Notes: generated by a model not told the origin, from the sequence alone. 27,891 bases of DNA from a virus (IMGVR_UViG_3300047476_000806), one strand, 5' to 3'; positions 8,599 to 25,224 are shown, numbered from the stretch's first letter. Translations and numbers: made by a program.

Positions 8599-9357
8599 TT
8601 TTGATTGACCTCTTTAGTTAATTCTTTTAGTTATTTATGTTATTTTTTAGTTCAAATCTACTGTGCCTGAACCAGTTTGTAAATCTTCGGTACCAGAAAG
8701 AGACATAAAATCACCTTCTAGACTTGATAGTGTTCTTGCAATTATTGCGGTTCTAACGAAATCAATAGTTGTTGTTTCAAATACAGGTGAAACATTCAAT
8801 CTAACATTTCCACCTGAAATGCTTGAATATAAATTAAATAAAACTGACGAAGACGTGTTTGATGTTTCGTTAGTATAAGTTAAATTGTCATTATGAGTTA
8901 ATAGCAATTCGGTTGAGTGAACATCACCACCCGATATAGCTTGAATTAAATACTTAACTGTTCTGAAAGATGTTGTACTAAAAGTATCAATTACTTGATT
9001 TGCAGTATTTGTTGATAATGAAGCTGTGTTATTGTACAAAGTACTCGATGCAGGTAAAGTAATAACTCCGCTATTATTCAAAGATACTGTTTGTGTGCCG
9101 CTAGATAATGTATTCGATGAACCGCTACTAGCAGTGTTTGCCGCATCAAAAGCCGCTTGTGCTAATGTAGTACCTGTATTAGCTTTAGCGAAAGCACTGT
9201 TAGCATATCCACCGGAAACACCAACCATGTTACTAATTGTAGTTGCAAAGTTGGCATCATCACCTAATGCGGCCGCTAATTCATTTAAAGTGTCTAATGT
9301 TGTAGGTGCTGAGTCGACTAAATTAGAAATCGCTGTACCAACGTAAGATTCGGTAGC
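8340..9357. repeat. Two dispersed ~118-bp similar copies (8340-8457 and 9240-9357) in adjacent fibre genes
   Basis: Both encode ATESYV.TA.SNLVD.AP.TLDTLNELAAALGDDANFATT and lie 900 bp apart, with long identical DNA stretches (e.g. gcatcatcaccta). Confidence 0.8.
8632..8639 (-). promoter_or_regulatory. T4-like late promoter, near-consensus (CATAAATA)
   Basis: Intergenic, 34 nt upstream of the 8598 start; 7/8 match to TATAAATA. Confidence 0.5.
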
Positions 9358-9822
9358 ATATCCAGCTAAAGATGTGATGGCAGTATTTGCTTTAGCGTAT
9401 GCACTATTAGCATATTCACCAGCAGTTTCAGCGTCAGTAGTTGCCGTGTTTGCTTGATGATATGCGGCATGTGCGTGAATTTGTGCTGTTGCGGCATATG
9501 TATTTGCGGTATTCGCTTGTGCAAAAGCACCGTTAGCATATGAACCAGCACTTAATGCTTTTTGGTCTGCTTGAGCCGCGTTAATTGTTGCTGTGTTTGC
9601 AACACCAAAAGCACCATTAGCATAACTGCCAGCAGAGTTTGCGGCATTAAACGATACTAATAAATCTGCTCTTTTGGCAATCTCGATACCGCCTTGCGTT
9701 AATCCGTCATGGACTATCAGCGTCTTTTTATCGGTATCTACAGTAACTTCAGCAACAGCACCTGTAAAGATGGCTGTCTGTGCTGTATTACCGCGTCTTA
9801 GTTGTAATTGTGTATTTGGCAT
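8647..9822 (-). CDS. Tail fibre protein with Mtd_N-like head
   Basis: LQLRRGNTAQTAIFTGAVAEVTVDTDKKTLIVHDGLTQGG, ANTA/ANSA repeats, the LDTLNELAAALGDD motif, and a beta-rich C-terminal domain (IDTFSTTSFRTVKYLIQ...ISGGNVRL). Confidence 0.85.
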   Translation of the reverse strand: MPNTQLQLRRGNTAQTAIFTGAVAEVTVDTDKKTLIVHDGLTQGGIEIAKRADLLVSFNAANSAGSYANGAFGVANTATINAAQADQKALSAGSYANGAFAQANTANTYAATAQIHAHAAYHQANTATTDAETAGEYANSAYAKANTAITSLAGYATESYVGTAISNLVDSAPTTLDTLNELAAALGDDANFATTISNMVGVSGGYANSAFAKANTGTTLAQAAFDAANTASSGSSNTLSSGTQTVSLNNSGVITLPASSTLYNNTASLSTNTANQVIDTFSTTSFRTVKYLIQAISGGDVHSTELLLTHNDNLTYTNETSNTSSSVLFNLYSSISGGNVRLNVSPVFETTTIDFVRTAIIARTLSSLEGDFMSLSGTEDLQTGSGTVDLN

Positions 9823-9852
9823 TTTTATCCCGCTAATTAATCTTTATTTGTT

Positions 9853-9860
9853 TATTTATA
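9853..9860 (-). promoter_or_regulatory. T4-like late promoter TATAAATA
   Basis: Perfect consensus in a 40-nt intergenic gap, 31 nt upstream of the 9822 start. Confidence 0.75.
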
Positions 9861-9862
9861 CG

Positions 9863-11215
9863 TTACGCTAACATACCTAAATCAAGTGTTGTTGCTGAAC
9901 CTCCAACAAAACCATAATCAAATGTAGCAGTAGCTAAACCTAAGAATCCTAAATCATTACCTATTCCAGTACTTTTTTTAACTAAAGTATTTCTAGAGTA
10001 AACTACAATTGAGTTCTCATTAGTAGGAGTAAACATTACGTTTACTAATCCTGATGAAACGTTTGAATTAATTGTTCCCAATGTCGTTGATGAATAGATA
10101 TCACCAAACATTACTTCTCTTGTAGTTTCGCCATCTTGACCTACATTGTATGAGAAGCTATGAAAATCACTACCACTTTCAATTTGAAATTGATAAAAAG
10201 CTGTTCTAAACAAATCAATTGAGAAAGAATCTATTAAAGTTTGTGATGTTCCTGTAACTTCTATTGAACCAGAAACTATACTTAAGTTTGATGCTACACT
10301 TAATTCTTTAACACCTAAAGTTCCTGTATTTGGTTTAAATGTTAAATTAGTACTAGATACATTTAAACTTGAACTAGTTCCTGAAATTTTATCTGTAAAG
10401 TTAACATAATAAATATTATTTGATGATACTTCATCAACAATAGTTATTGAAGAGCCACTTGATAATGTATTAGCTAAATCATACGCTGATTGAGCAATTA
10501 ATTCTGAAGTATTTGCTTTGTCAAATGATGAATTGGCTTTTATAAAAGCACTATTTGCGTAAGAACCATTAATCGTTGTTCTACCGAAAGCAGTATTCGC
10601 TAAACCATAGGCTGTGTTTGCTTCATTGTAAGCACTATTTGCATGAGCATATGCACTGTTCGCTGTTGTTCGAGCAAAACTATCTGAAGAAGAACCTCCA
10701 GTGTTTGCTTGGTCGAATGCCGCTTGTGCTAATATTAGTGATGTGTTAGCTTTATCAAAAGAACTATTAGCATATGAACCAGCACTATTTGCTGTTAAGT
10801 ATGCACTATTAGCATACGAACTAGCACTGTTAGCCGCATTTCTAGCCCAACCATCGGTAGAAGTTCCACCTGATAGTGTATTTGCTAAATCATAAGCACC
10901 TTGTGCTATATTATAAGCGTCGGTCAGTGTAGAATTAATTAATGTATTTGCTACAATCTTATTTACATATAGATATGAATCTGCTATCTCATATCTAACA
11001 TTTTGAGTAGCACCTAAATCACCATATGAATTAAATTGAATCTCTCCATTTAATCCTGCTGGTGTGGTTGTTGAGAATTCAGTAACCGCAGATAAAGCAT
11101 TACCATAAAACAATTTACCATCAACAAAGTTGATAGCAAGTTCACCTGGTTGTAGTATCACTGGAACGTTACCAGTTACACCTGAACTTCTTATTTGAAT
11201 TACGGTATTTGCCAT
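9863..11215 (-). CDS. Tail fibre-like virion protein
   Basis: MANTVIQIRSS...GELAINFVDGKLFYG head, GLNGEIQFN motif, ANSA/ANTA repeats, and a C-terminal domain (IDSF..DLFRTAFYQFQI) paralogous to that of 8647-9822. Confidence 0.8.
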   Translation of the reverse strand: MANTVIQIRSSGVTGNVPVILQPGELAINFVDGKLFYGNALSAVTEFSTTTPAGLNGEIQFNSYGDLGATQNVRYEIADSYLYVNKIVANTLINSTLTDAYNIAQGAYDLANTLSGGTSTDGWARNAANSASSYANSAYLTANSAGSYANSSFDKANTSLILAQAAFDQANTGGSSSDSFARTTANSAYAHANSAYNEANTAYGLANTAFGRTTINGSYANSAFIKANSSFDKANTSELIAQSAYDLANTLSSGSSITIVDEVSSNNIYYVNFTDKISGTSSSLNVSSTNLTFKPNTGTLGVKELSVASNLSIVSGSIEVTGTSQTLIDSFSIDLFRTAFYQFQIESGSDFHSFSYNVGQDGETTREVMFGDIYSSTTLGTINSNVSSGLVNVMFTPTNENSIVVYSRNTLVKKSTGIGNDLGFLGLATATFDYGFVGGSATTLDLGMLA

Positions 11216-11218
11216 CTA

Positions 11219-11710
11219 TTAGAATGTTCCACCTGAGTTTATCTCAACATCAGATGCCTTAATTTTCTTTAATTTGGTTACAGGAGCAATCTCTTCTAGT
11301 TGCTCTATGTATTTATTTTGCTTTTCAACATCACGTTGAATGTCATCTAGTTTAGCAACAAGTGATTGTTTTTCTGCTTCTAGACCTCTAATATTTTTCA
11401 TGTAGTCGTTAACAGCACCTTGCAATCTATCCTTTTCAGCTTGAAGTGTGGAAGTCTGATTAACTTGATTTTGTTTATTGGTATTATCTACTGCTAATGC
11501 ATTATTCAAATTAGTCGATTCGGTAAGTTTTTTCTCAAGTTCAATATTCTTTCTAGATACTTCTTCAAAAGCTTTTTTAGTTGATTCTAATTCTGAACCT
11601 GCATCTTCATATACTTTAACTTGTGCTTGAATCATAATATTTTGCTTGACAACCGCCATAAAGTTGTCAAGCAAAACTTCAACATATGCATTTTGTAATT
11701 TCACGTCCAT
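11219..11710 (-). CDS. Coiled-coil protein (163 aa) in the fibre operon, possible fibre-assembly factor
   Basis: Heptad-rich K/E/Q/L sequence ending NSGGTF. Start moved to ATG 11710 (MDVKLQ), which has an AGGAAG SD; track start was 11728. Confidence 0.7.
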   Translation of the reverse strand: MDVKLQNAYVEVLLDNFMAVVKQNIMIQAQVKVYEDAGSELESTKKAFEEVSRKNIELEKKLTESTNLNNALAVDNTNKQNQVNQTSTLQAEKDRLQGAVNDYMKNIRGLEAEKQSLVAKLDDIQRDVEKQNKYIEQLEEIAPVTKLKKIKASDVEINSGGTF

Positions 11711-11738
11711 TACGAACTTCCTTTTCAATAATAATTAA

Positions 11739-13985
11739 TTAGAATGTACCACCATTTAAATATTCAAATACAGGAGCACCACTGCTACTGATTTGTAATA
11801 CGTGTCCTTCAGTAGAAGAACCCACAGATTTAACAGGGTTAGTACCATCACCGTAAATGATGTGGTTCACACCGATTGTTTTAACACCTAAACCACCATC
11901 AGATACTGAGATAGCGTTGAACAATCCTGAAACGTTACCGCCTGTAAAGTTAGCTTCTAATGTTGCTCTATTTTCAGCACTGTATGAAACTACGTTACCT
12001 GTTGGGTCTGTTGTTTCACCTGTGAATAGTTTGAATACTCCGTCTGAAGCATCACGTACTAAACCAGAGAACTTATCTGAACCATCATTGTATTGACCAT
12101 AGAAACCAATATCTAACAAGTCAGCTACGTTATTTGCGGCTAATTTAATTAGTGAGTCGTCTGTTCTTACTGTAGAAGTATCAATCGATACTGTATTACC
12201 TGAAACGAACAAATCGCCAGCTACTGTTAAACTACCACTGATTGTACCACCAGCAGAATTTAGTTTAGTGTTTGCTGTATCAAAAGCCGCTTGTGCTAAA
12301 ATTGTACCTGTATTTGCTTGGTTATATGCACTATTAGCGTAAGAGCCAGAAGTTACTGCTCGTTGGTCAGCTACTGAAGCATTTGTCGTTGCAGTGTTCG
12401 CTTGACTATACGCTGAGTTAGCATATGAACCTGCTGAAACAGCTTTTTGGTCTGCTGTAGCGGCATTTGTAGTTGCTGTATTTGCTTGGTTATATGCACT
12501 ATTAGCTTGAGTATATGCACTATTAGCATATGATGAAGCGGCTGAAGCGTTTACTGTTGCTGTGTTAGCTTGAGTGTAAGATGCGTTAGCATAAACACCT
12601 GCACTAGTCGCGTACTGAGTTGCAGTATTTGCTTGTAAGTATGCGCTGTTAGCGTAACCACCAGCAATTTGACCACCGGCAACTAAAGCATTATTAGCTG
12701 TAGCAAAAGCGGCATTAGCGTAAGCACCTGCTGTTTCTGCACTTGTTGTTGCGATGTTTGCTTGTTCATAAGAAGCGTCGGCTTTAATACTTGCTGTATT
12801 TGCTTTAGCGTAACCAGATTCAGCGTAACCTAATGTTAAATTAGAATGAGCAAAAGCACTGTTAGCATGAACGTAACCGCTTGTAGCGTGTGCTGAAGCA
12901 CTGTTAGCTACACCATAAGCACCATTAGCGTGATTAATCGGGTCATAACCTCTGATAGAAACCACATCAGAAATTAAGTTTGCTTTAATCGTTGCATATT
13001 TGAATGATGCGTCACTAGTGTCAATGTAGATTGAAGCGTCTGGTTCTAGTAAATAACCATCGTAGAATTTCCAAACACCATCTGAAGCATCTCTGAATAA
13101 ACCAGTGTGTTGATATGTGCCGTCATTATATGCGGCCGCAATACCTAAGTCAGGATTAGCAACGTTGGCATCAGCATTCAGATAAATCATATTATCTTGA
13201 ATTGTCATGTTATTAGCATGAACTGTTGTCGTTGTTCCTGAAACTGTTAAGTTACCATCAATTTGTACGTTACCAGTGATTGAACCACCTGAAGTAGCAA
13301 ATTTAGTATTAGCTAAAGCAAAAGCACCGTTAGCATAAGAACCAGCCGATTGAGCGTATTGTGTACCTGTATTAGCTTGATTGTAACCAGATTGTGCTGA
13401 TAGAGTTGCGGTGTTAGCTTGTTCATACGCTGAGTTAGCATAAGAACCAGAAGTTACTGCTCGTTGGTCTGCCGTAGCCGCATTAGTGGTAGCAGTATTC
13501 GCTTGATCATAAGCACTGTTTGCGTATGAGCCAGAAGTTACTGCTCGTTGGTCTGCCGTAGCGGCATTTGTAGTTGCTGTATTAGCTTGCGTGTAAGCAC
13601 TATTGGCATATGATGATGCCGCATTTGCAGTGTTTCGTGCGAATCCGTCAGTCGCTGTACCTCCAACTGCGTTATTAGCTGTGTTAAAAGCAGATTGTGC
13701 AAAACCTAAAACATCAACACCATCATCAATAAATTGACTTGCTGTAATAATATTAGCATCAATGTTACCACTAGTACTTCTACGAACGATTGTATTTGCA
13801 GTATTAGCTGAAGTTGCGTTGTCTAGTAATTCGGTGAAATATTTACCACCAATTGCCACCACACCAGAACCATCATTAATAAACAATTTATTAGAAACGT
13901 TTGAATAAGCAGGTTCCGCAATATTTAATAACGGTGGTACGCTCGTGACGTTAGAATATTTGAGTTGAATTACTGTATTTGCCAT
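11739..13985 (-). CDS. Long tail fibre protein (748 aa)
   Basis: MANTVIQLKYS head, long Ala/Asn heptad repeats, two GGSITG/GGTISG..GNLTVSG beta motifs each followed by a DIG/DLG...GL.RDASDG..K.(Y/F) domain; ends LNGGTF. Start moved to 13985, 1 nt after the upstream stop. Confidence 0.85.
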   Translation of the reverse strand: MANTVIQLKYSNVTSVPPLLNIAEPAYSNVSNKLFINDGSGVVAIGGKYFTELLDNATSANTANTIVRRSTSGNIDANIITASQFIDDGVDVLGFAQSAFNTANNAVGGTATDGFARNTANAASSYANSAYTQANTATTNAATADQRAVTSGSYANSAYDQANTATTNAATADQRAVTSGSYANSAYEQANTATLSAQSGYNQANTGTQYAQSAGSYANGAFALANTKFATSGGSITGNVQIDGNLTVSGTTTTVHANNMTIQDNMIYLNADANVANPDLGIAAAYNDGTYQHTGLFRDASDGVWKFYDGYLLEPDASIYIDTSDASFKYATIKANLISDVVSIRGYDPINHANGAYGVANSASAHATSGYVHANSAFAHSNLTLGYAESGYAKANTASIKADASYEQANIATTSAETAGAYANAAFATANNALVAGGQIAGGYANSAYLQANTATQYATSAGVYANASYTQANTATVNASAASSYANSAYTQANSAYNQANTATTNAATADQKAVSAGSYANSAYSQANTATTNASVADQRAVTSGSYANSAYNQANTGTILAQAAFDTANTKLNSAGGTISGSLTVAGDLFVSGNTVSIDTSTVRTDDSLIKLAANNVADLLDIGFYGQYNDGSDKFSGLVRDASDGVFKLFTGETTDPTGNVVSYSAENRATLEANFTGGNVSGLFNAISVSDGGLGVKTIGVNHIIYGDGTNPVKSVGSSTEGHVLQISSSGAPVFEYLNGGTF
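13447..13614. repeat. Tandem 84-bp (28-aa) coding repeat; its 23-bp core ccagaagttactgctcgttggtc recurs at 8228, 12346, 13447 and 13531
   Basis: Unit YANSAYxQANTATTNAATADQRAVTSGS; identical 23-mers read directly from the sequence, with 84-bp spacing between the last two. Confidence 0.9.
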
Positions 13986-13986
13986 T

Positions 13987-14217
13987 TTAGAATTGGCCTC
14001 CATTTATATTTGTTATATCTACTTGTGCCGCTGAAATTGGAGTTGACTCGTACTCACCTGTTACCGCATTATATATTAAAGTATCTCCATCCAATCTTGA
14101 TGAAACATTAATTTGTTGTATATCACTGATAGAAACGTTAACTTTAGGTTCAAAGTTAGGTGATGCTATCGTCGTTCTATTACCCGTTCTTACGGTTACT
14201 TTACCAATATTTGCCAT
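13987..14217 (-). CDS. Small virion/tail-associated protein (76 aa)
   Basis: LDGDTLIYNAVTGEYE motif typical of phage fibre-associated proteins; ends INGGQF; tightly packed in the operon. Confidence 0.7.
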   Translation of the reverse strand: MANIGKVTVRTGNRTTIASPNFEPKVNVSISDIQQINVSSRLDGDTLIYNAVTGEYESTPISAAQVDITNINGGQF

Positions 14218-14590: not shown

Positions 14591-15160
14591 TTATCTTGAA
14601 TTGAATAGAAATAAGTCTGTTGGAACAGCTAATCTGATATTACTTTGATATGTTGTTACATAATGATATAAAAAACTAGGAAAGACTACTATTTGACCGC
14701 AAACAGGTTTATGTTTTAGTGGAGCAAACCATTCTTGAAAACTTAAATCATATCCTCTATTGGCATTTTGTCTAGGGTCAGTAAAAACTATTTCACCGCC
14801 AGATTCCGAATCGTCAGCTATAAGATACAAAACTGAACTAAGTTGACTTCCTCTATGATTATGATAATTGAGTGCCTGACCTTGAGCATATGAAACTAAC
14901 CAACCATTCATCTTATGACCGTGCCAATCATCAATATTTTTATTCAATGTTTGATTTAAGTATGAATTAAAAGCTGGTTTAAATATATCATTCTTAACTC
15001 TTTGCATTTCTGGTTTTTCAAGTAAAGAATCATCAGCACTTTCTTTACCAACCAAAGTATCTTTATTCATCAACAAATAATTGATAGTGTAATCCAGTAA
15101 TTCGGTATCTGTAACATCTTCAATTAATACCGACGTTTGCCAAAGATTAAGCATACTCAT
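14591..15160 (-). CDS. 2OG-Fe(II) oxygenase (TIGR02466-like)
   Basis: NGW, YHNHRGSQLSSVLYL, GGEIVFTDPR, VVFPSFLYHYV and a terminal R (NIRLAV). Confidence 0.85.
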   Translation of the reverse strand: MSMLNLWQTSVLIEDVTDTELLDYTINYLLMNKDTLVGKESADDSLLEKPEMQRVKNDIFKPAFNSYLNQTLNKNIDDWHGHKMNGWLVSYAQGQALNYHNHRGSQLSSVLYLIADDSESGGEIVFTDPRQNANRGYDLSFQEWFAPLKHKPVCGQIVVFPSFLYHYVTTYQSNIRLAVPTDLFLFNSR

Positions 15161-15560
15161 TTAACATAAACTCTTCATCAAAATAACTTCTAACATGAGG
15201 AACCATTCCTTTTGTTACATCAAAATTTAAATAATCTATAGATTCCAATATTTGATTATAGACACCTTTGTTTTCACTATAAGGTAAGAAGTATGGGTCG
15301 TTACCATATAACAAATCTTTATCATTTAAACAGTCGATGAAGTCTTCACCAAATGTTTCAGATATCCATCTAGCGTAGCAAATTGCGACCATATAACTCT
15401 TAGCTGGATATACCCAACCCATAGTACTATCAGTGAAGTATCGTATCGCATCATCAACAATATTATTTGACAATAGAATATTTTTAGTCTTCAAGTCATC
15501 ATCATGTTCTGTGTGTAGTCTATGAAAAATTTCTTGTCTAACTTTCCAGTCGTTCATCAT
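15147..15560 (-). CDS. Hypothetical protein (137 aa) in the rSAM cluster
   Basis: Intact ORF overlapping both neighbours; no motif recognised. Confidence 0.75.
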   Translation of the reverse strand: MMNDWKVRQEIFHRLHTEHDDDLKTKNILLSNNIVDDAIRYFTDSTMGWVYPAKSYMVAICYARWISETFGEDFIDCLNDKDLLYGNDPYFLPYSENKGVYNQILESIDYLNFDVTKGMVPHVRSYFDEEFMLNEYA

Positions 15561-16461
15561 ACCAATCCAAAAGTAATTTAAAACCGTTGCAACTATTAGT
15601 TAAAGATTTAACATCTCTCAAGTGTTCGGATAAACAGTTGCCATAATATTTACAGTTTGAACAGAATTTATTTTTAGAAACTCTCTTCTTTTCTGTCTCA
15701 CACCACTCAAAATATTTATCTAAAGAATCATATTCTAAGAAAAATTCATTATCATTCAAATCGAATTCCAGTACTCCATATTTTCCTGATGGTGTAATGT
15801 ATATATGATTGTCTGAAAAACTGTTTCTTTTCTTCTCAAGTGATGATATAATTAAAGATTCGTTTGTTAGTTTGAAGTTTTTATCTGTGTTGATAATCCA
15901 CTTCTTAACAAATTCTTCAAAGTCTGAAAACTTAACGTCATATTGATTTGCTTGATTTGTGCTGTATGGTTTTATCTCTACTGATTCTAAATTTGTAAAC
16001 GTATTCAATACTGATATCATCTCATCAACGTTTTGTGTTAGTAATTTTGGTGAGGCTAACATCAAAATAGAAAATGGTTTGTTCAGTAAAGCCATATTCT
16101 TCAAAACTAATTCATATGATTCTCTAGCTTCAAAATCAAAACTAACCGACGTATAAACTCGTTTATCGATAGTAATTTCATTTATCATCGATAAATTAGT
16201 GATTAAATTTATATCTTGTATACCGTAAATTTGCAGTATACTAATAAAGTCGTTCCAGTAGTCTTTAGGTAATAAGCCAACTTCACCGCCATATACATCT
16301 ACCATTTCAATATCAGTTGTCTGCACAATTTCTGCTAACATCTCGGATAATCTGTCTAATGATAATAGCTTTTTATCTCTTAATTGTGTTTTCGTTAGGT
16401 AACAAAAGTCACAATCAAAGTTACAAAAGTACCAAGGGTTAATAGATATGTTCATCGACAT
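15538..16461 (-). CDS. Radical SAM protein 4 with reduced auxiliary Cys motif
   Basis: CNFDCDFC (CxxxCxxC), YGGE and C-terminal CSNCKYYGNCLSEH...SCNG. Start may be 16455. Confidence 0.85.
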   Translation of the reverse strand: MSMNISINPWYFCNFDCDFCYLTKTQLRDKKLLSLDRLSEMLAEIVQTTDIEMVDVYGGEVGLLPKDYWNDFISILQIYGIQDINLITNLSMINEITIDKRVYTSVSFDFEARESYELVLKNMALLNKPFSILMLASPKLLTQNVDEMISVLNTFTNLESVEIKPYSTNQANQYDVKFSDFEEFVKKWIINTDKNFKLTNESLIISSLEKKRNSFSDNHIYITPSGKYGVLEFDLNDNEFFLEYDSLDKYFEWCETEKKRVSKNKFCSNCKYYGNCLSEHLRDVKSLTNSCNGFKLLLDWYDERLES

Positions 16462-17506
16462 ATTCTGTCACCTCTAAATCTAGTCCATTAGCTTCGATAA
16501 TGTCACCCGCTAATGACTTCATTTTGAAACAATGTACTTCTACTAGATTGTGTGTTTTCAAATCTTTGATTGTCTTCTTACAACCATTACATATCTCAAA
16601 CATAGGACATGTGAAGCAAGATTGTTTCAAGCTTTGTAATTCAGGTTGAAACTTTAATGGAAATATTTTATTACCAGACATCTCTTCTTTGAAGTCGATT
16701 GAATACTCTCTATCATCACCAAAAGCACCGCAAGAATAATAGTCGCCTGATGGTTGTAATGTTCTAATATTCGAATCACAGTTTCTATTTTGTGGGCAAG
16801 ATGTTGCATTACCTTTTAAACGCTTAATCATTTGAAGCGTATTATATTCCCAATGATGTAAATCTTTTTTCCAGATTTCCACATAAATTTCATATATGTC
16901 TGCTAATAAGAATGGTTTACCTTCTTGTCCCATTATGATATTCTTGAATTTTACTGGAGGACCTGAAGAAAGTGCGTAATTAAGTTTACACTCAACACCC
17001 ATTTCTTTAGCAAGTTCCACATTCTTGATTGCCATATGACAGTTTTCTTCAGTGATTACTGAAATGAAATCAGGTCTATATCCACAGTGTTCAAGCATTG
17101 CATCAGATACATTCCAAAAGTCTTCTTCACTAAATTCAGATAAGTCGCCTTTTAGTCTACCGCCACCATACTGAAATGATGTTGTTACTCCAACACGTTT
17201 GTGGTTGAATAAGTCTTTCCATTTTTCAGGATTCTTATAGAACGGCCATAAGTTTGTTGTTAGTGATAAAGTTGCTGGTGAATTTATTGCGTCTAGATGT
17301 CTGATAATTTTCCAGTAGTATTCTGGTTCCATCATCAATGGGTCACCACCATTCACTATGATAGTGTTCGTTTCTGGAAATCGTTCTAAGAATTGAAAGA
17401 TGTAATCATGGTCAAGTTCAGCAGTTTTATCTTCTGTTATTTTAGTGCTAGAACAAAACGTACATTTGAAATTACATTTCTCAGTAGGTTTAATTATTAA
17501 TTCCAT
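16439..17506 (-). CDS. Radical SAM/SPASM protein 3
   Basis: IKPTEKCNFKCTFC, NGGDPL, CPQNRNC...PSGDYYSC and CFTCPMFEICNGC...HC. Confidence 0.92.
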   Translation of the reverse strand: MELIIKPTEKCNFKCTFCSSTKITEDKTAELDHDYIFQFLERFPETNTIIVNGGDPLMMEPEYYWKIIRHLDAINSPATLSLTTNLWPFYKNPEKWKDLFNHKRVGVTTSFQYGGGRLKGDLSEFSEEDFWNVSDAMLEHCGYRPDFISVITEENCHMAIKNVELAKEMGVECKLNYALSSGPPVKFKNIIMGQEGKPFLLADIYEIYVEIWKKDLHHWEYNTLQMIKRLKGNATSCPQNRNCDSNIRTLQPSGDYYSCGAFGDDREYSIDFKEEMSGNKIFPLKFQPELQSLKQSCFTCPMFEICNGCKKTIKDLKTHNLVEVHCFKMKSLAGDIIEANGLDLEVTEYVDEHIY

Positions 17507-18498
17507 TTATTGTCCACATAATCATATACTTCTTTCAACCAACATTCTTCTTGTGTTCTAGCATCTTTAATATGATTACTCAAGAAACATCCTAAAGAAC
17601 ATCTATTAAAGTGTTCACATTCTAAACATTTATAATCATCAAACCAAGCTTGCTCTAAATCTTTTTTAGATGGAATCAACTTGATAGGTATAACACCCTT
17701 TAGCAGTATATCGCATCGACCAAAGTCTTCGTTTGGCATGATTGTGTATGTGTCCATACATGACATGTTTTGTTTTGTTTTGTTGTTGAAACCATTGAAT
17801 GGACTACAGTTAGGCCAAACATCATACATATATTTCATGAAGTTTCTAAGTTCGTAGTCTTTAGGAAGCAAAACATCCATATGCTTTTCTGGAGTATAAT
17901 AATCAAAGTATACTGGAAAATGTTTGTATAGATAGTCGAAGAAAGGTACAACGTTAGTCACAAATCTATCAAGATTAGGTTTAGTCATAATTACATTGAC
18001 TGACCTAATATGAGGAGTAAACTCAAATACATTTCTTGTGAATAATTTGAATGTATCAACATTAAAACGACCTGAGGGGTCATAACTAGTATACAATTTA
18101 ACTTTAGTCTTTTCTAAGAAAGCACTAACTCGTTGTGTATTAGTCCAAATAAAGTTAGTCGTGAATTGAACACTGACTTCGATATTATTATCTGAACAAT
18201 ATGATTTGATAGAGTGTACCAATATCACATAATCATCATATACACTATCAGGTAACTTATCAGAAAACACTTCACCACCCATAATATTAATGGTGAATAC
18301 TGTTTTACCTTTCTTTTGTAATTCTGCGATTGCTTTTTTGATAGGTTCTATCTTGTCTTTGATTGTATCAATACCTGCCATACTGTTATGGTCTTGAGCA
18401 CAAAACAAGCATGAGATATCACAGTACTCAAATAGAGTCACAATAATCTCACCTGTTTCGGTTCTCTTAGTATTGTTAATTACTTTTTCTGCAATCAT
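17497..18498 (-). CDS. Radical SAM/SPASM protein 2
   Basis: FEYCDISCLFC, MGGEVF, SCMD...GRC and CLECEHFNRCSLGC...EC. Confidence 0.9.
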   Translation of the reverse strand: MIAEKVINNTKRTETGEIIVTLFEYCDISCLFCAQDHNSMAGIDTIKDKIEPIKKAIAELQKKGKTVFTINIMGGEVFSDKLPDSVYDDYVILVHSIKSYCSDNNIEVSVQFTTNFIWTNTQRVSAFLEKTKVKLYTSYDPSGRFNVDTFKLFTRNVFEFTPHIRSVNVIMTKPNLDRFVTNVVPFFDYLYKHFPVYFDYYTPEKHMDVLLPKDYELRNFMKYMYDVWPNCSPFNGFNNKTKQNMSCMDTYTIMPNEDFGRCDILLKGVIPIKLIPSKKDLEQAWFDDYKCLECEHFNRCSLGCFLSNHIKDARTQEECWLKEVYDYVDNKWN

Positions 18499-19130
18499 TT
18501 AATTTTCCACTTATAAGAGAAAGCAAAAGTATATCTATTAACATTTGCTTTCAATTCTTCAACTTTATGCATAAACAAAGGATTATCATTATTAATAATT
18601 ATCATCGTTCCTGCGTTCGGTAATATCTTAGTCGTATACTTATGCTTGTTTAAAAGTTTCTTAGTAACAGATAAACTTCCACCATAAGATGACTTCCATT
18701 CTGTTTCAGTAAGATAGCATAACACTAATGTGTTTGTGCCGTCTATCACATCTTGGTGATAGTCACCACCTTCTGCACCATTCCATAGATGTATATGTGA
18801 AATTTCGTGTATAGGTCTAACTATACGCAAAAAATCAAATATAGAATTGTTTATTAGTTTTTCAGATAATTCTTTTAAAGAATCGGGACATCGTTCTAAA
18901 TTCAATCGATTTGCTCTATATTCAAATTCCATGTGAGCATCATCACCTTGAATATCGACAGGTTGACCTTCTATATACCAATCAGGAACTGTTTTGAATA
19001 CCGATTTACTTTTAATCCATTCTGTTGTATATATTTGCATCCAGAAATCAGACATCAACTCATCAGGTATTTTTGTATTTACAAAACCTTTTTCGTAGTA
19101 ATCAAATCCAAGATTTGCTAATTGATTCAT
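18495..19130 (-). CDS. 2OG-Fe(II) oxygenase (prolyl-hydroxylase-like)
   Basis: HxD (YHQD), LCYL...W..SYGGSL, distal His (FMHKV) and RYTFAF. Confidence 0.85.
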   Translation of the reverse strand: MNQLANLGFDYYEKGFVNTKIPDELMSDFWMQIYTTEWIKSKSVFKTVPDWYIEGQPVDIQGDDAHMEFEYRANRLNLERCPDSLKELSEKLINNSIFDFLRIVRPIHEISHIHLWNGAEGGDYHQDVIDGTNTLVLCYLTETEWKSSYGGSLSVTKKLLNKHKYTTKILPNAGTMIIINNDNPLFMHKVEELKANVNRYTFAFSYKWKIK

Positions 19131-19620
19131 GATTCCAATTCACTATAAAGTCAAAACAAGCTACAATTCTTCTATGTTCGGTGTAACCTGCTCTATGTAA
19201 TATTTTAGGATTATCATTTAATACAGCGATTAATTCACCATATCTAGGATAGATGACATCATCACCGACATACAATCCACCTTCTTTTATTTCACTCATA
19301 TCATTAAAGTAAAGTAAAAAGAATACGTTTGATGGTTCATCAGCATCAGAATGAAACTGGCAAAATTTAGAATCTTTTGGTAGATTACCTTTTATGTCAG
19401 ATTCTAATAATTCATATGAATGTGCATAAGGTTGTATGTATGTTAGTGCTATTTGATTGTGTAATACATTCAACATAGTCTTAACATAATCTTGATTGTT
19501 AGTAGGAAGTCTACTAATATGAGAAGTTTTAGGGTCAAACTCTAAATCATCAACCTGTAATTGGTCTGCTAAATCTGTTGCTAACCAATTACAGTATCCA
19601 TTTTTAAATAACGAGTGCAT
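19102..19620 (-). CDS. 2OG-Fe(II) oxygenase
   Basis: FHSD, FLLYFND, EGGL, distal His (LHRA) and RRIVACF. Confidence 0.8.
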   Translation of the reverse strand: MHSLFKNGYCNWLATDLADQLQVDDLEFDPKTSHISRLPTNNQDYVKTMLNVLHNQIALTYIQPYAHSYELLESDIKGNLPKDSKFCQFHSDADEPSNVFFLLYFNDMSEIKEGGLYVGDDVIYPRYGELIAVLNDNPKILHRAGYTEHRRIVACFDFIVNWNHESISKSWI

Positions 19621-19621
19621 A

Positions 19622-20704
19622 TTATCTTATTAAATAAGCTTTCAATTTCTCAGGTGATTTGACATTTTGTAATACGTAATCAATAAAATAGATATTGATA
19701 TTTTCTAAATCAATTGTTGAACAGAATGGTTCTTCAGCAACACACTCATTAGCAATAAATGCATCTAAGTCAGCATCAGTCAATTCTGTTTTACGTACAT
19801 ATTTTAAATATGATTGAAAGTATTCTTTATATTCTAATTCAGGATATACTTTATTAATAAATGAATCCAACAATACAATATCAGCATCACTAATAGATTT
19901 CAAATCAATGTTTGATTGTTTACCAAATCTAGGTGTACCTATATGACTCATGAAACTAGAGTCATTGATAATTTTAAGTGCAGGGTCTGTACTATAAGCA
20001 TCAATATTATCAAAAGTATTTAATGTAACACCAAGTCTATCTGTAAATTGTTTACGTAATAGTTTTCTATTCACAGTATACTTGGCTTCAATAATAGTTT
20101 GTTCGATTTGACGTTTAACTAATTTTTGAATTGCTACTTTTAATTTAGCTTTTTGAGTCTTATTATAAACATAAGATGATAACAAGAATTCAATACTTAA
20201 GTTGTATCCTACAGTAGTAAGAATATCTGTTGCTTCAGCTACAGTCACTGTTGTTTTACCAAAGACTGCTTCCCATTCAGCAAGTGATGGTTCGAATGTG
20301 TCGAATGCATCAAAGTCTTTAGTCTCTAAACTTCCAACAAGTTTTTCTCTATCAAAGTGTGCTTTAATAATTTTGTGAGCAGAAACAGAATCGATGTTTG
20401 CAAAAATAGCTTTGAACCAAGCACACACAATAGTTAAGAATGCTGATTGGTCTGCATAGATAACAAAAGGACGGTCATTTGTATCATTTTGTTGCGAGAT
20501 AGTTTTAAGTAATGAAAAAACACTTTCGTATTCTTTACCTTTACCTACAATCTTTGTTATATCATCAACGTGATGTAATACTTCACCAATAGATACTTTA
20601 GTACCATCAGGCATACCCACAGATTTAGATATAACCAATCTATCGTTTTTAACATCAATCAACGAATCGATTTGAATGTAGGTTTTCTTAAACAGGTGTA
20701 ACAT
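19622..20704 (-). CDS. Hypothetical protein (360 aa) in the rSAM cluster
   Basis: Long intact ORF overlapping the upstream gene and 1 nt from the next; no confident family. Confidence 0.8.
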   Translation of the reverse strand: MLHLFKKTYIQIDSLIDVKNDRLVISKSVGMPDGTKVSIGEVLHHVDDITKIVGKGKEYESVFSLLKTISQQNDTNDRPFVIYADQSAFLTIVCAWFKAIFANIDSVSAHKIIKAHFDREKLVGSLETKDFDAFDTFEPSLAEWEAVFGKTTVTVAEATDILTTVGYNLSIEFLLSSYVYNKTQKAKLKVAIQKLVKRQIEQTIIEAKYTVNRKLLRKQFTDRLGVTLNTFDNIDAYSTDPALKIINDSSFMSHIGTPRFGKQSNIDLKSISDADIVLLDSFINKVYPELEYKEYFQSYLKYVRKTELTDADLDAFIANECVAEEPFCSTIDLENINIYFIDYVLQNVKSPEKLKAYLIR

Positions 20705-21416
20705 TAATTAACTCCTCTAATTCTTTTACAGAATTTTGTTTTGCTTCTATGTATTCTTCGTTTTTAAATAATTGTTCTGAGATACCTACTGTTAACATAT
20801 ACATTGGGTTATTATTGTTAGCCCAATAAGAATACATGTTTTTACCTTTGAACATATACTCATCAAAATATTTAGAGTAGAATCTCAAACTACTTTGGTC
20901 AATACGACCGAATAATGTATAGAAAAACTCATGTTTCAGTAAGCTTACAAAGTTAATTCCTTCGTTGCTATCTGTATTATCTTCAGGAAACTGCTTCACA
21001 TAATTCTTCATTTCTTCAGAATCGATAATGTATAGATTATACAAAATCAAACTATCAATTCTAGAAACCCATTTCTTAACAATCTCAATGTTGTCTTCGA
21101 TAAATTGTTTATAAATTGTTGAGTCGGTCATGCTCTTTAATTCAAGCATAATTAAAATAACTTCTTTTTCTAAAGAAGTCACGTTCAACAACATGCCACT
21201 ATGTAAATAATCTTTAATTAATTCTAATCGTTCTTGTTCTGAACAATCTTTAAAATCTATATCTGCTGGTATATCAAGATTACTTAAATAAGTCAGTAAC
21301 TTAGAACCTTTTAATGTACTATTAGCATAATCAATCTGATAAGATATTGATTTATCTGTAAAATATTGTTTTAGATTGTCGATTGATATAGGTGCTACTG
21401 TTCTCACTAAACTCAT
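20688..21416 (-). CDS. Hypothetical protein (242 aa) in the rSAM cluster
   Basis: Intact ORF starting 6 nt after the CHxx-repeat gene stop; no confident family. Confidence 0.8.
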   Translation of the reverse strand: MSLVRTVAPISIDNLKQYFTDKSISYQIDYANSTLKGSKLLTYLSNLDIPADIDFKDCSEQERLELIKDYLHSGMLLNVTSLEKEVILIMLELKSMTDSTIYKQFIEDNIEIVKKWVSRIDSLILYNLYIIDSEEMKNYVKQFPEDNTDSNEGINFVSLLKHEFFYTLFGRIDQSSLRFYSKYFDEYMFKGKNMYSYWANNNNPMYMLTVGISEQLFKNEEYIEAKQNSVKELEELINVTPV

Positions 21417-21422
21417 AATATA

Positions 21423-21992
21423 TTATCTTCTTCCTCTTGAACCATGACAATTTGAATGACAAGAAGCATGACATACATTAATTTGAACTGTAACCGTCTG
21501 TGCTCTTGCATTATTTAAGATATCTCTTAAGTGACTAAAAAACGACTCTAAATTACCAGCAGATACATTTTGTCCTGCATCTACACCCATAGTACTCCAA
21601 CCAAAACCTTGTAAATAGTTTCCGTTTAGGTATGCAATCGCCGTAGCATCATAAACATATCCTGGTGTTGGTCGTGAGCCTGTATTACCACCGCCGCCAT
21701 CAACAAATAATAATGCTCTCAAATTTCTGATATTCGTATATGCATAAGTTTCGTTTACTAATGCATTAACAATTGAAGAAGCTGTGACTAAACTTCCTGT
21801 AACTCCTACACTTCCTCCATTGATACCGATGCCTTTACCAGAAGTGTAACCACCAAAATAGTTACCATCAAACTCAGCAAATGGATATGCATTATATCCC
21901 CAAGCAATATTTGAGTTTCCTGTTGCAACAACATAGTCAGCAAATCTGTCAACAATATTCTGTGGGGTAATAGGATTATCTAGTGATGCCAT
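21423..21992 (-). CDS. Putative modification substrate: Gly/Asn/Tyr-rich 189-aa protein with C-terminal (CHxx)3 motif
   Basis: Ends VCHASCHSNCHGSRGRR*; all three Cys in the protein are in this tail; overlaps the rSAM1 stop. Confidence 0.75.
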   Translation of the reverse strand: MASLDNPITPQNIVDRFADYVVATGNSNIAWGYNAYPFAEFDGNYFGGYTSGKGIGINGGSVGVTGSLVTASSIVNALVNETYAYTNIRNLRALLFVDGGGGNTGSRPTPGYVYDATAIAYLNGNYLQGFGWSTMGVDAGQNVSAGNLESFFSHLRDILNNARAQTVTVQINVCHASCHSNCHGSRGRR

Positions 21993-23037
21993 TTATTATC
22001 CAAATCTTCTTTTTAGTGTTAGTCTTCAGTTGTCTCATTAAACTTTTTGGAGCACCGCAAACATCATCTTGCCATGATAACTGGTGACAATCGCCACCAC
22101 AATATTCAAAAACATCACAAGAAAAACATCTAGTGTCTCGTGCACGTTCGCAAGCAATATTTTGTACTCTAGTAGGACTATTTATAAGAGTTTCTATAGA
22201 ATCATCTAGATGTCCAAATTGAAACTCCGGTGCCGAATTAGGACATCCAGATATACTTCCAGTTGCATTAATCGTGAATATCTTTTCTTCACAGTCTCGA
22301 CAGAATGTGCCACCTTTGGTGAAGTTGTTTTCAAATTTCTCATAAACAATCTCTAAAAACTCATTATCAAACCATTCTCTAGCACCATATTCTTCAGATT
22401 GATTATGCATCTTTAAGAACCATGCATCTTGTTCTATGTTAGATGGAAATATTTCAGGATGCAAATTAGCATTACCATTACCCGTAAGTCGTTCGAATGC
22501 TAACTCTTTGACACCTAAACTTCTTACCCATTCCAGTAATTTGATAGGCTCAATCTCGATAGTATCTTTAGTAACACTAATAAAAAGTTTTATGTCAACG
22601 TTTTTTTGAACTAAAGTCTTGACATTTTCAGCCCATAATGTAGATTGCTTTTCGTTATCGAATCTAATCTTAGGGTCCCAACTAGTGCCTAATCTATTAT
22701 TCAAACAATTTTTAATAAAATCTATTTTATCATCAGTTAGTTTGAATACTAAGTTTGTAGTAATACCCCATGACATCTCAGGAAATAAACTTTTACATTC
22801 ATTCCATACATATCTCATTTGTTCTACAGGTGCTAAGAAAGGTTCACCGCCATGAAACTCACAGTGTAGAGAATCTTCTTTGATTGAGTCTTTTCGATAT
22901 TCAGCAAATCTTTTAATCCAATTTGCTACTTTGATATGATTCCAATAGATTTTAGGTCCATTGATTCCATTGGTGAAACAGTGCTTACAATTAAGGTTGC
23001 ACGTTTCGGTCGTCTTCAGATAAAACATCCAATTCAT
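21976..23037 (-). CDS. Radical SAM/SPASM protein 1
   Basis: YLKTTETCNLNCKHC, FHGGEPF, CRDC...INATGSISGCP and CFSCDVFEYCGGDC...VC (canonical Cx2Cx5Cx3C). Confidence 0.95.
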   Translation of the reverse strand: MNWMFYLKTTETCNLNCKHCFTNGINGPKIYWNHIKVANWIKRFAEYRKDSIKEDSLHCEFHGGEPFLAPVEQMRYVWNECKSLFPEMSWGITTNLVFKLTDDKIDFIKNCLNNRLGTSWDPKIRFDNEKQSTLWAENVKTLVQKNVDIKLFISVTKDTIEIEPIKLLEWVRSLGVKELAFERLTGNGNANLHPEIFPSNIEQDAWFLKMHNQSEEYGAREWFDNEFLEIVYEKFENNFTKGGTFCRDCEEKIFTINATGSISGCPNSAPEFQFGHLDDSIETLINSPTRVQNIACERARDTRCFSCDVFEYCGGDCHQLSWQDDVCGAPKSLMRQLKTNTKKKIWIINGITR

Positions 23038-23515
23038 AACTAATCACTTTATCTTTTAAAAAATGTTCTAAACCGAAACTGAGCATTAATGAATCTTCTT
23101 TATTTAATGCTTCATGAGGAGTATTAGCAGGAATTAATACTGATTGATTTGGACCAATACAGTGTTCTTTAGAATCTATATTCATCCACTTAATCCCGGC
23201 TACACCGAGAATTATAACGTCATCAGGGTCAGTGTGCAAGCCAAAACTAACAGAATCTTTGAATGCTCTAAAAGCATGACATGACACAGGACCATCATGA
23301 TTATATTTGATTGCTAATTCTTTACAGAAATTAAAAATACTTTGATTGTATTTTTCCATCTGTTCTATCTTAATAGTGCAGGCATTGTATTTGTACAAGT
23401 CACCTAGACTATTAAGATATATTTGTTTACCGTCTTCATCAATAACAGATATAATATTTTGTTCGTAAACTAATTTAGAGTGAACAAAATTCTCAAACTC
23501 AAGTAATGAAATCAT
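22991..23515 (-). CDS. JmjC/cupin-type 2OG hydroxylase (RoxA/YcfD-like, minimal)
   Basis: HAF...SFGLHTDPDDVIILGVAGIKW (HxD...K) and LIPANTPHEA...SLMLSFG (distal His). ATGA overlap with the upstream fibre stop. Confidence 0.82.
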   Translation of the reverse strand: MISLLEFENFVHSKLVYEQNIISVIDEDGKQIYLNSLGDLYKYNACTIKIEQMEKYNQSIFNFCKELAIKYNHDGPVSCHAFRAFKDSVSFGLHTDPDDVIILGVAGIKWMNIDSKEHCIGPNQSVLIPANTPHEALNKEDSLMLSFGLEHFLKDKVISYELDVLSEDDRNVQP

Positions 23516-25224
23516 AGAATAACGGCTTCAATCATTCCTTCAACAGTATTGATTGATTCAAGAGCAATCGCAAATTTATTTTCACCAGAACCAGCTATAG
23601 CATAACCATCTTTAGTTGAAATTAAAGTTTGGCCTTTATTAACTGGACCAAGAACTTTAACTGGAACACGACCACGCAAGGCGATTGGTTGGCCTTCGCT
23701 ATCATTATTCATTAAGTAAGCTGGATTTTCAGAAATAACTCCAAGAACAACTTGAGCATCATCATATGATTGAGTAGCTTCAGAAGTTTCTACTGTTGAA
23801 ACAACAATAACTGTACCAACTTCATATTCTTGGTCGGTTGTATATTTCTCAGCCAAGTCGGCGTATCTTGCTGTAGTTGCTGTACCACTAAACAATGCCG
23901 CAGTTACTGTATATCCTGAAACATTAACATCGGCTGTTACTGTTAGAGCACCGGTAACTGTACCGCCAGATTTAGGTAAAGCGTTTCCTGCTGTTATAAA
24001 CGCTGAGTTAGCTACAGCATAAGCACTATTAGCATATGATGAAGCACTAGCCGCATTAAGAACCGCAGTGTTTGCTCTAGCGAATGCTGAGTTAGCATAT
24101 CCACCAGTAATTACACCACCTTGTAATAATGCTGTATTTGCAGTATCAAAAGCACTGTTTGCTTTGATGAAAGCTGAGTTAGCATAACCACCAGTAATTA
24201 CACCACCTTGAAGTAAAGCTGTGTTGGCTAAAGCAAATGCCGCATTAGCATAAACACCTGTTGTATTTTGACTTACATAAGATGCATTAGCATGTAAGTA
24301 TGCATTGTTAGCATAACCACCAGCAGTTAAATAAGCAACTCTTAATGCACTTGCTGTAGGAATTAATGATGTATTAGATGAAACTGGTGAATCGATAATT
24401 AAAGATTCATCAACAATAGAAGAAATGGTTGCTGTATTTCCTCTTGTGATTTGCCATACATCAAATTGTTCATTCCAAATAATAGAAGCATTATTGCCAG
24501 TATTTCTTTCATTCGTGATATATGCATTTTTATCTACTAATGTATTTGCATTAAGTGTTAACGTATCTGTTGAAATAACAGTGTTACCTACTTGAGTGAA
24601 TGTACCTCGAATAACAAAGTCACCTTCAACGATACCGTCACCGTATACTGTTAAGAAAGTGTTAACTGTAGCAACATCACTAGATAACAATCTAGTACTA
24701 ATGTTATCTGTAGTAATTGTGTCTGTGACATATACGTTAGAATTTGCGTATACATTATTAGCAATTAAAGTGTTTGCTGAAGCAGTACCTAAAACCTCAA
24801 TGTTTGTATTTACGATGCTTGAATTAGAAGATAAGCGGTTACTAACTATTGTACCACCAAAAGAAGCACTAGCATTAACAGTAAGAGAATTTACAGTTGC
24901 ATTGTTAGCAACGTATAATGAAGTGTTAGGACCTAATACAGATAACTCTCTACCAATAACAACGTTACCTGTTTGTGATGATTGAACACCGATATCAAGT
25001 TCTCTACCGATAATAACTTCAGATTGAAATAAAGCAGTATTAGAAACTTGTAAGCCAACACCATTTGCAGTAATAATCATGGTAGAATTATTACTTAAAA
25101 TCAATGTACCGTCATACTTAGTATAAGTACCTGACTCAAGTTTATTCAATTCCAACGCAGATTGGTTGGTCTGAATTCTCCATTCATCAATAGTGTTGGT
25201 TCTTGCAATGGTTGATATTGACAT
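23512..25224 (-). CDS. Tail fibre/appendage protein with C-terminal intramolecular chaperone (Peptidase_G2-like)
   Basis: TNTIDEWRIQTN head seen in T4-like virion proteins, beta-helix-like middle, ANSA repeats and RYADLAEKY...GVISENPAYLMN...IALRGRVPVKV. Confidence 0.85.
   Translation of the reverse strand: MSISTIARTNTIDEWRIQTNQSALELNKLESGTYTKYDGTLILSNNSTMIITANGVGLQVSNTALFQSEVIIGRELDIGVQSSQTGNVVIGRELSVLGPNTSLYVANNATVNSLTVNASASFGGTIVSNRLSSNSSIVNTNIEVLGTASANTLIANNVYANSNVYVTDTITTDNISTRLLSSDVATVNTFLTVYGDGIVEGDFVIRGTFTQVGNTVISTDTLTLNANTLVDKNAYITNERNTGNNASIIWNEQFDVWQITRGNTATISSIVDESLIIDSPVSSNTSLIPTASALRVAYLTAGGYANNAYLHANASYVSQNTTGVYANAAFALANTALLQGGVITGGYANSAFIKANSAFDTANTALLQGGVITGGYANSAFARANTAVLNAASASSYANSAYAVANSAFITAGNALPKSGGTVTGALTVTADVNVSGYTVTAALFSGTATTARYADLAEKYTTDQEYEVGTVIVVSTVETSEATQSYDDAQVVLGVISENPAYLMNNDSEGQPIALRGRVPVKVLGPVNKGQTLISTKDGYAIAGSGENKFAIALESINTVEGMIEAVIL
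24086..24229. repeat. Tandem 87-bp (29-aa) coding duplication, second copy partial
   Basis: ANTALLQGGVITGGYANSAF occurs twice; ccaccagtaattacaccaccttg at 24101 and 24188. Confidence 0.85.

Follow-up and report, generated by a model that had tools for sequence, protein, structure and literature searches.

Virion proteins are known to undergo cleavage, glycosylation, and auto-cross-linking. QhpD is a single radical S-adenosylmethionine (rSAM)/SPASM enzyme that introduces three Cys thioether cross-links into QhpC, a small subunit that is retained in a larger assembly. HXS is an antiphage defense system in which the rSAM enzymes HxsB and HxsC, together with the small partner HxsD, mature the full-size basic protein HxsA (Li et al., Nat Commun 2026, PMC13128918). 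Mature HxsA blocks phage DNA entry, and a +8 Da change maps to its S-H-R-S-S motif, in which His and Ser are essential (PMC13128918). The viral DNA IMGVR_UViG_3300047476_000806, a stretch of 27,891 nucleotides referred to here as the window, carries at 14591-23515 a cassette of 12 genes that includes four rSAM enzymes and a protein of 189 amino acids (aa) ending in a Cys-His-repeat tail (the CH-tail protein). The cassette probably serves the enzymatic maturation of a structural virion protein of the fiber module, with the CH-tail protein as its substrate, a reading to which a probability of roughly 60% is assigned. In the literature outside subscription journals, a search found neither a report of virion proteins being modified by rSAM enzymes nor a characterized system of matching architecture, as the initial annotation of the window had supposed.

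The CH-tail protein is encoded on the minus strand at 21423-21992 and consists of a body (residues 1-173) and a C-terminal tail, CHASCHSNCHGSRGRR, whose codons lie at 21426-21473. The tail is the exact C-terminus of the protein, as initially annotated, and its 16 residues follow the pattern (Cys-His-x-Ser)x3-Arg-Gly-Arg-Arg. A degenerate DNA pattern for C-H-x-x-C-H-x-x-C-H-x-x-R-x-R-R-stop has a calculated chance frequency of about 1e-13 per site, and because it was found on at least 119 IMG/VR contigs, the tail is not a product of chance; the scan returned at least 142 open reading frames (ORFs) of 124-364 aa, all terminating in the motif. A profile built from 53 full-length homologs retrieved 825 clusters among 1.84 billion representatives, and the strict motif ends 134 of the 150 best representatives, the remainder being near variants or truncated. 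The Cys, His, and three Arg residues of the tail are invariant among the 53 aligned homologs, and the body drifts to ~25-30% identity. Each repeat ends in Ser in ~90% of cases and in Asn otherwise. Variant tails also occur (L037, L197, L205; P0122, P0123), among them tails with four C-H-x-S repeats or only two, and a Gly/Pro-rich extension replaces R-G-R-R in two family representatives.

The AlphaFold2 (AF2) model of the CH-tail protein contains a globular alpha/beta body, with a predicted local distance difference test score (pLDDT) of 87 and a predicted template modeling score (pTM) of 0.80, from which the tail protrudes at low confidence. Fold searches with this model found nothing outside its own family in the PDB (Foldseek), in 48,161 chains compared by VIA-align (best Z 4.0), in AFDB clusters, or in BFVD. 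Two BFVD proteins of 504-660 aa from Myoviridae sp. ctijX18, A0A8S5USJ8 and A0A8S5USJ7, contain a region with the tail-protein body fold (Foldseek E 2e-5 to 7e-5) and may be fusions of the body to larger structural proteins.

The CH-tail gene and the enzyme genes are inherited together. In type 1 loci, which include the window, a fiber gene is followed by a cupin gene, rSAM_D, the tail-protein gene, o242, in some loci o360, rSAM_C, rSAM_B, rSAM_A, o137, and in some loci a 2-oxoglutarate (2OG) oxygenase gene. rSAM_D lies within the upstream flank in 64 of the 82 IMG/VR tail loci with at least 1.5 kb of upstream sequence, and rSAM_C is present in 35 of 41 loci with flank. Judging by the surveyed loci, most of the rSAM_D exceptions are type 2, in which a tandem pair of 124-140-aa tail proteins stands directly behind a fiber gene; wherever the flank reaches far enough, the cupin and rSAM genes are seen at a distance of 5-11 kb (L048, L072, L090). 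Of ten type 2 contigs that were checked, six have an rSAM_B gene at another position, and the remaining four are fragments of 3-22% of a genome. In the reverse direction, 44 loci were fetched by rSAM_D alone, and all 39 with at least 1 kb of downstream sequence have a tail-protein gene, which ends 0.5-0.85 kb past rSAM_D. The initial annotation had proposed that co-occurrence of the CHxx protein and the rSAMs be sought in phage databases, and both search directions bear it out; its counter-case, homologous rSAMs that lack the CHxx protein, was not encountered among rSAM_D relatives of at least 61% identity, the range covered by the reverse search.

Four cultured jumbo phages share a syntenic core of one-to-one orthologs, which comprises the tail protein, the cupin, both o137 and o242, and all four rSAMs. 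These phages are RSL2 of Ralstonia (together with its relatives), Atu_ph07 of Agrobacterium, Phosso of Sinorhizobium, and pPa_SNUABM_DT01 (DT01) of Pseudomonas. The tail is identical in all four. Across loci in general, the conserved core is made up of the tail protein, both o137 and o242, all four rSAMs, and usually the cupin, and the variable genes are those for the 2OG oxygenases, o360, and o172. The oxygen-dependent steps look like optional decorations, because the 2OG oxygenases come and go between loci. Megablast of the 9-kb block against isolate phages gave no match, and relatives are recognized at the protein level only. The cassette is not peculiar to the phage under study: several jumbo-phage genomes and predatory bacteria carry it. 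The jumbo-phage genome papers list its genes unexplained, with two offering guesses, and one of them describes the number of rSAM genes in a structural cluster as 'highly unusual'. In the RSL2-type cassette, a dihydrofolate reductase gene (L001 10941-11477, RSL2 gp073) is present amid the cassette genes and is probably an unrelated insertion.

One ortholog of the CH-tail protein is located in the virion. The proteome of purified Atu_ph07 particles (PMC6102473, Table S5) lists gp170 (31.89 kDa) with 8 unique peptides and 35% coverage, together with gp176 (66.07 kDa) and gp177 (21.66 kDa); the enzymes gp165-169, 171, and 172 are absent from the list (PMC6102473). Molecular weights computed from the locus match those of the table exactly, which identifies gp170 as the tail-protein ortholog and gp176 as the fiber-like gene product with the shared C-terminal domain. 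The tryptic C-terminal peptide of the Atu_ph07 tail protein is a 30-mer ending in ...CHSSCHASCHNSR. gp170 was detected across gel slices 1-9 with its maximum in slice 1, far from slices 7-8, in which other proteins of ~30 kDa are most abundant (PMC6102473). This anomalously high migration is a hint of covalent linkage and nothing firmer, because no reducing agent is named in the description of the loading buffer (PMC6102473) and many proteins smear.

The fiber-like structural protein encoded immediately upstream of the cassette (570 aa; minus strand, 23512-25224) matches PHROG tail-fiber families over aa 440-550. Its C-terminal domain of ~110 aa also occurs in Atu_ph07 gp176 and in Phosso, and it recurs before tail genes in 39 of 53 IMG/VR loci with enough upstream flank. 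The domain has no Pfam match and no sequence relative in the PDB. It (aa 425-570) resembles the Peptidase_G2 intramolecular-chaperone domain in Atlas features (0.95) and in structure (TM 0.83-0.89), so an auto-cleaving chaperone of the Peptidase_G2 type may be considered here as a lead only.

Several points weigh against the CH-tail protein as a matured virion protein. The assignment of the substrate draws on gene linkage and conservation, the virion location comes from one proteome (Atu_ph07), and the high-mass form of gp170 may be disulfide-linked or part of a smear; many proteins in the same table spread over several slices. Tail genes in tandem-pair loci stand 5-11 kb from the enzymes, and some relatives carry 6-15 rSAM genes, so that further substrates must exist. 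Finally, the Cys3His3 tail could simply bind metal.

The last of these points leads to an alternative in which the tail is a metal or Fe-S site, such as a trimer-axis metal as in other phage fibers, the CH-tail protein has a structural or helper role, and the rSAMs modify another protein, for example the fiber or a different tailed protein. The three Cys and three His at fixed spacing would suit such a site, as would the placement of the tandem-pair genes beside the fiber and distant from the enzymes, and the relatives with many more rSAMs imply additional substrates. However, in 39 of 39 relatives the tail gene adjoins and overlaps that of rSAM_D, and in Bdellovibrionota the tail gene travels with the four rSAMs in the absence of the phage fiber domain. 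The Ser at position 4 (~90%) and the terminal R-x-R-R are conserved alongside Cys and His, which is a better fit to a motif for enzyme recognition or reaction than to a site that only binds metal. A metal site with the rSAMs acting elsewhere is regarded as unlikely, and the CH-tail protein is the best candidate for the substrate of a dedicated post-translational modification cassette.

The four rSAM proteins all match a single phage family, phrog_1802. rSAM_D (353 aa; 21976-23037) matches it at 2.9e-65 and overlaps the start of the tail-protein gene, rSAM_C (333 aa; 17497-18498; 1.7e-38) is the most divergent of the four, and rSAM_B (355 aa; 16439-17506; 2.4e-60) is the best conserved; these three are annotated as rSAM/SPASM enzymes. 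rSAM_A (307 aa; 15538-16461) has a four-Cys, twitch-like auxiliary motif and matches PF04055 at 32.5 bits, being one of two rSAMs above the cutoff of that model. All four contain the CX3CX2C motif for the SAM-cleaving 4Fe-4S cluster, which is conserved across 32-98 orthologs each, and each has its own set of conserved C-terminal Cys residues. rSAM_D combines C13/C17/C20 with eight such residues, rSAM_C combines C26/C30/C33 with seven, rSAM_B combines C11/C15/C18 with eight, and rSAM_A combines C13/C17/C20 with four (C267/C270/C276/C291). This agrees with the C-terminal Cys clusters seen initially in all four enzymes. The SPASM model TIGR04085, with a cutoff of 27 bits, scores 34.2 for rSAM_D, which is above it, and 25.2 for rSAM_B and 14.7 for rSAM_C, which are below. 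The identity of rSAM_B is 55-83% over phages and Bdellovibrionota and 57-63% to RSL2, Atu_ph07, Phosso, and DT01.

The best partial NCBIfam matches of the rSAMs are to PapB, anSME, DynA, TIGR04083, cyclophane synthases, QhpD, and HxsB/HxsC, all at 24-48 bits, and no rSAM of the cassette attains any curated NCBIfam cutoff. Sequence searches of the PDB with single rSAMs gave almost nothing, and a profile was needed; the rSAM_D profile finds 8vpo, ChlB, anSME, and CteB, and more weakly 7tol, the archaeal glycerol dialkyl glycerol tetraether (GDGT)/macrocyclic archaeol synthase. anSME (4k36) is the only PDB structure that this profile aligns at full length (residues 10-317). No PqqD domain or recognition element (RRE) for peptides that are ribosomally synthesized and modified post-translationally (RiPPs) was matched in any cassette protein by Pfam or NCBIfam. 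Because the rSAMs begin at the catalytic core and have no detectable N-terminal RRE-type recognition domain, they appear to resemble minimal protein-acting enzymes of the anSME type more than leader-dependent RiPP maturases.

It is also conceivable that the enzymes perform nucleic-acid or metabolite chemistry, such as DNA or nucleotide modification, DNA repair, or a boost to host metabolism, and that linkage to the tail protein is incidental. The DT01 genome paper assigns its rSAM genes a role in DNA repair or metabolism, the RSL2 cassette contains an inserted gene for dihydrofolate reductase, and the rSAMs have weak N-terminal similarity to MoaA and viperin models. That similarity is restricted to the first ~100 residues of the generic rSAM core (NCBIfam; PADLOC viperin-core only), whereas the full-length and SPASM matches are to protein and peptide maturases. 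With near-complete two-way co-occurrence with the tail protein and a position within late structural operons, such chemistry is very improbable. The initial placement of the enzymes near peptide- and protein-modifying SPASM families, rather than among cofactor or nucleotide enzymes, is in keeping with both the NCBIfam matches and the PDB profile.

SPASM-type enzymes may also belong to a true RiPP or cofactor pathway, in which the body would play the part of a long leader or scaffold and cleavage would release the modified tail as a small bioactive peptide or redox cofactor of the pyrroloquinoline quinone (PQQ), mycofactocin, or pearlin type. The tail is disordered in the AF2 model, and its extreme C-terminal position is that of the core in MftA and PqqA. 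However, the body is a conserved, well-folded domain, the Atu_ph07 ortholog was recovered from purified particles, and the cassette always lies in fiber or adhesin gene neighborhoods. Pfam, PHROG, and NCBIfam revealed no domain of a protease, a transporter, or an RRE in the cassette; specifically, no leader peptidase or exporter was found among the 12 genes with these resources, although three of the genes encode unassigned orphans and host enzymes could serve in their place. Release of the tail as a small product is regarded as improbable. The original proposal of a dedicated modification cassette with its own substrate is upheld by co-inheritance in both directions, but its RiPP framing does not fit a folded ~170-aa domain with an ortholog in the virion.

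In the favored mechanism, maturation of the CH-tail protein would begin with an operon that is read together with the fiber genes. The tail protein would fold into its compact body and expose the flexible 16-residue C-terminal tail, on which the four rSAMs, as distinct orthologous groups with their own auxiliary Fe-S patterns, would act by H-atom abstraction. rSAM_D, as the constant neighbor of the tail protein, would be the natural first actor, with o242 and o137 as putative obligatory helpers and the cupin and 2OG oxygenases adding optional oxidations. The most likely products would be covalent links, whether Cys thioethers, His-Ser carbon-carbon links, or an HxsA-like change. Candidates include three Cys thioethers like those that QhpD introduces into a protein; carbon-carbon links from His to Ser, as in triceptides; and a +8 Da change as on the HxsA S-H-R-S-S motif. 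The last Cys, with its C-x-x-x-R spacing, could alternatively become a formylglycine whose aldehyde could cross-link to a partner. The matured protein would then be built into the virion beside the fiber encoded just upstream.

A more specific and tentative proposal, considered somewhat less likely than not, is that an as yet undescribed rSAM chemistry is common to large phages and Bdellovibrio-like predators and makes the (Cys-His-x-Ser)3 tail of a small protein cross-linked or reactive through thioethers, imidazole cross-links, or an aldehyde. The tail might in this way lock the protein covalently onto host-contact fibers or form a metal-binding or adhesive tip. If true, this would represent a new class of enzymatic virion maturation relevant to attachment to Gram-negative cells.

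The 12 ORFs at 14591-23515 are consecutive and all on the minus strand; neighbors either overlap by 4-47 nt or are separated by 1 or 6 nt. Tight coupling of the 12 genes, as described initially, is thereby confirmed, and the upstream fiber-like gene also overlaps the cassette, by 4 nt. In order of transcription, the cupin comes first, then rSAM_D and the tail protein of 189 aa, followed by orphans of 242 and 360 aa, a protein of 172 aa, a 2OG oxygenase of 211 aa, rSAM_C, rSAM_B, rSAM_A, an orphan of 137 aa, and a 2OG oxygenase of 189 aa. The T4-type late promoter TATAAATA was found 7 times, the expected count being 7.0, and no copy precedes the first gene of the cassette; a separate promoter thus has no support. 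The window carries myovirus-type tail genes, and fiber genes flank the cassette on either side.

The first cassette gene encodes a cupin-type, JmjC-like Fe oxygenase of 174 aa (22991-23515) that matches phrog_8014 and has orthologs in all four isolate phages. It was initially called a JmjC hydroxylase. The triad H94-x-D96...H134 and K109 are kept in 63 orthologs, and PF08007 (JmjC_2) scores 20.8 bits against a cutoff of 22. Because both this model and Cupin_2 (21.7 against 27.2) fall below their cutoffs while HxD...H and the Lys are conserved, 'cupin-type oxygenase' seems the safer label.

Three accessory 2OG-Fe(II) oxygenases complete the oxygen-dependent set, in the number initially counted, two being recognized through Pfam and one through profile comparison and invariant residues. 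The 189-aa oxygenase (14591-15160), the last gene of the cassette, is of the PF13759 type (48.7 bits; phrog_81 2e-25) and occurs in 8 of 25 loci with flank. The 211-aa oxygenase (18495-19130) matches PF13640 at 32.1 bits and PF13661 at 30.1 bits, both above the cutoff of 27, and contains invariant H125xD127...H188...R199. The divergent 172-aa enzyme o172 (19102-19620) has no Pfam match; it contains invariant H90xD92...H142...R151, and profile-profile alignment (hhalign) relates it to the 211-aa family at 98.3% probability and E 2.5e-14.

The orphan proteins o137, o360, and o242 have no family assigned, as the initial annotation had found. o242 (242 aa; 20688-21416) is conserved and matches phrog_20767 at 7.4e-66. 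In the window and in three sampled Bdellovibrionota chromosomes its gene comes immediately after that of the tail protein, and elsewhere it lies downstream at varying distance; overall it is present in 67 of 93 IMG/VR loci with flank. Its AF2 model has a pLDDT of 91.6, and fold searches with it gave no clear match (best Z 5.0, over 55 residues only). Complex prediction for the tail protein with o242 scored 0.00, which gives no verdict in either direction. o360 (360 aa; 19622-20704) is without family, weakly conserved (~25% identity), and present in 28 of 68 loci with flank; its Atlas model is poor, and Atlas feature searches with o242 and o360 returned no usable match. o137 (137 aa; 15147-15560) is a conserved core member that matches phrog_20737 at 2.1e-53 and usually follows rSAM_A.

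The cassette is also present in predatory bacteria. A scan for the tail pattern in one genome per prokaryote species gave 47 loci, of which ~38 are true tail proteins, ~27 of these in Bdellovibrionota assemblies, and about eight are low-complexity chance matches in high-GC DNA. Three Bdellovibrionota loci on contigs of 1.3-2.8 Mb were examined over 40 kb around each. Each of the three has all four rSAMs together with the tail protein and o242; o137 was detected in two (G002, G003) and the cupin in one. Their flanks contain cellular genes (SMC, a DinG-like helicase, SLT, matrixins), and the copies look chromosomal rather than prophage-borne. A 2355-aa Big_2/RCC1-repeat protein of surface type adjoins the cassette in one (G001, L223:2866-9933) and a 413-aa Peptidase_S74 fiber-chaperone protein in another (G002, L224:15765-17006), which suggests a link to prey-contact fibers. 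An unrooted maximum-likelihood tree of rSAM_B divides 42 phage rows, including the window and the isolates, from eight Bdellovibrionota rows by a branch with 99/94 support.

Contigs of metagenome-assembled genomes (MAGs) named Marinovum, Rickettsiales, Rhodobacteraceae, and Methanobacteriota (L176, L177, L185, L195, L212, L214) have the phage-type layout with fiber genes and are probably phage contigs mis-binned into MAGs. A 249-kb contig of 28% GC from a MAG labeled Bacilli bacterium (L201) encodes a very divergent full set, in which rSAM_A-D show 24-33% identity and o137 is accompanied by a tail protein of 226 aa that ends in the canonical tail, and the cassette family may thus reach beyond elements associated with Gram-negative bacteria.

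Downstream of the cassette, window positions 7702-14003 contain consecutive fiber genes with repeated motifs of the 'YANSAY-QANTAT' type, at a GC content of 0.37-0.41 versus 0.29-0.34 in the cassette. Beyond this fiber array, PHROG matches at 1-7562 identify a sulfotransferase-like gene, a small kinase, a Nol-type carbamoyltransferase, and a glucosyltransferase. These sugar-modifying genes hint at a second, glycan-based modification module within the structural region.

The cassette is widespread but unstudied: hundreds of large phages, drawn from unrelated lineages (T4-like, Rak2-like, phiKZ-like), carry it, and it also occurs in predatory bacteria. It occupies 9 kb of structural operon, and with such a breadth of occurrence it must pay its way. 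It could explain part of how phages and predators hold or penetrate Gram-negative envelopes, and its chemistry, once solved, would extend the repertoire of rSAM/SPASM enzymes by a new reaction or product. The cultured carriers Atu_ph07, RSL2, and DT01 make maturation of the CH-tail protein directly testable.

Among known systems, PapB, CteB/SCIFF, ChlB and the triceptide synthases, and DynA are among the top-scoring relatives of rSAM_D and rSAM_B, and they act on short repeated Cys- or aromatic-x-x triads that resemble C-H-x-S. Unlike these enzymes, which are matched at 24-48 bits against cutoffs of 340-650, the cassette showed no leader peptide, RRE, protease, or exporter in the Pfam, PHROG, and NCBIfam searches, and its putative substrate is a folded virion protein. 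Ranthipeptide membership was rejected with PapB, the best score, at 48.1 bits against 340, and triceptide membership with the cyclophane models (XyeB, GrrM, YhhB, FxsB, AmcB) at 19-36 bits against 310-445. Membership in a RiPP cluster was likewise rejected: the candidate precursor is a folded 173-aa domain plus tail, not a short leader-core peptide, and no protein matched an RRE.

QhpD has a weak match to rSAM_D (TIGR03906, 7.1e-8), at 31.5 versus 453 bits. The acceptors in QhpC are Asp and Glu, which are missing from the tail, and the biological context is different. anSME (4k36) lacks an RRE and acts on a whole protein as a minimal rSAM/SPASM enzyme, and the cassette enzymes appear to be of this kind. 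Sulfatases carry the motif C-x-P-x-R, with Cys and Arg at i/i+4, and the last tail repeat has the same spacing. However, the tail reads C-H-[GSN]-S-R, with a middle residue of G/S/N versus P/A, there are three repeats and four enzymes, and the substrate is not a sulfatase; TIGR03942 scores 44.3 and 37.3 bits against 349.45, and membership was rejected.

HXS is the closest characterized analog of the cassette, although membership in that system fails: HxsB (TIGR03978) scores 32.6 bits against 370 and HxsC (TIGR03977) 30.2 against 267.9, and neither the tail protein nor any orphan has an NCBIfam match to HxsA (TIGR03979) or HxsD at E<=0.1. [quoted passage not shown] The two systems are alike in that multiple rSAMs mature, or in the cassette would mature, a full-size protein with tandem His-x-Ser in a basic context, which in the cassette takes the form of C-H-x-S repeats followed by R-G-R-R.

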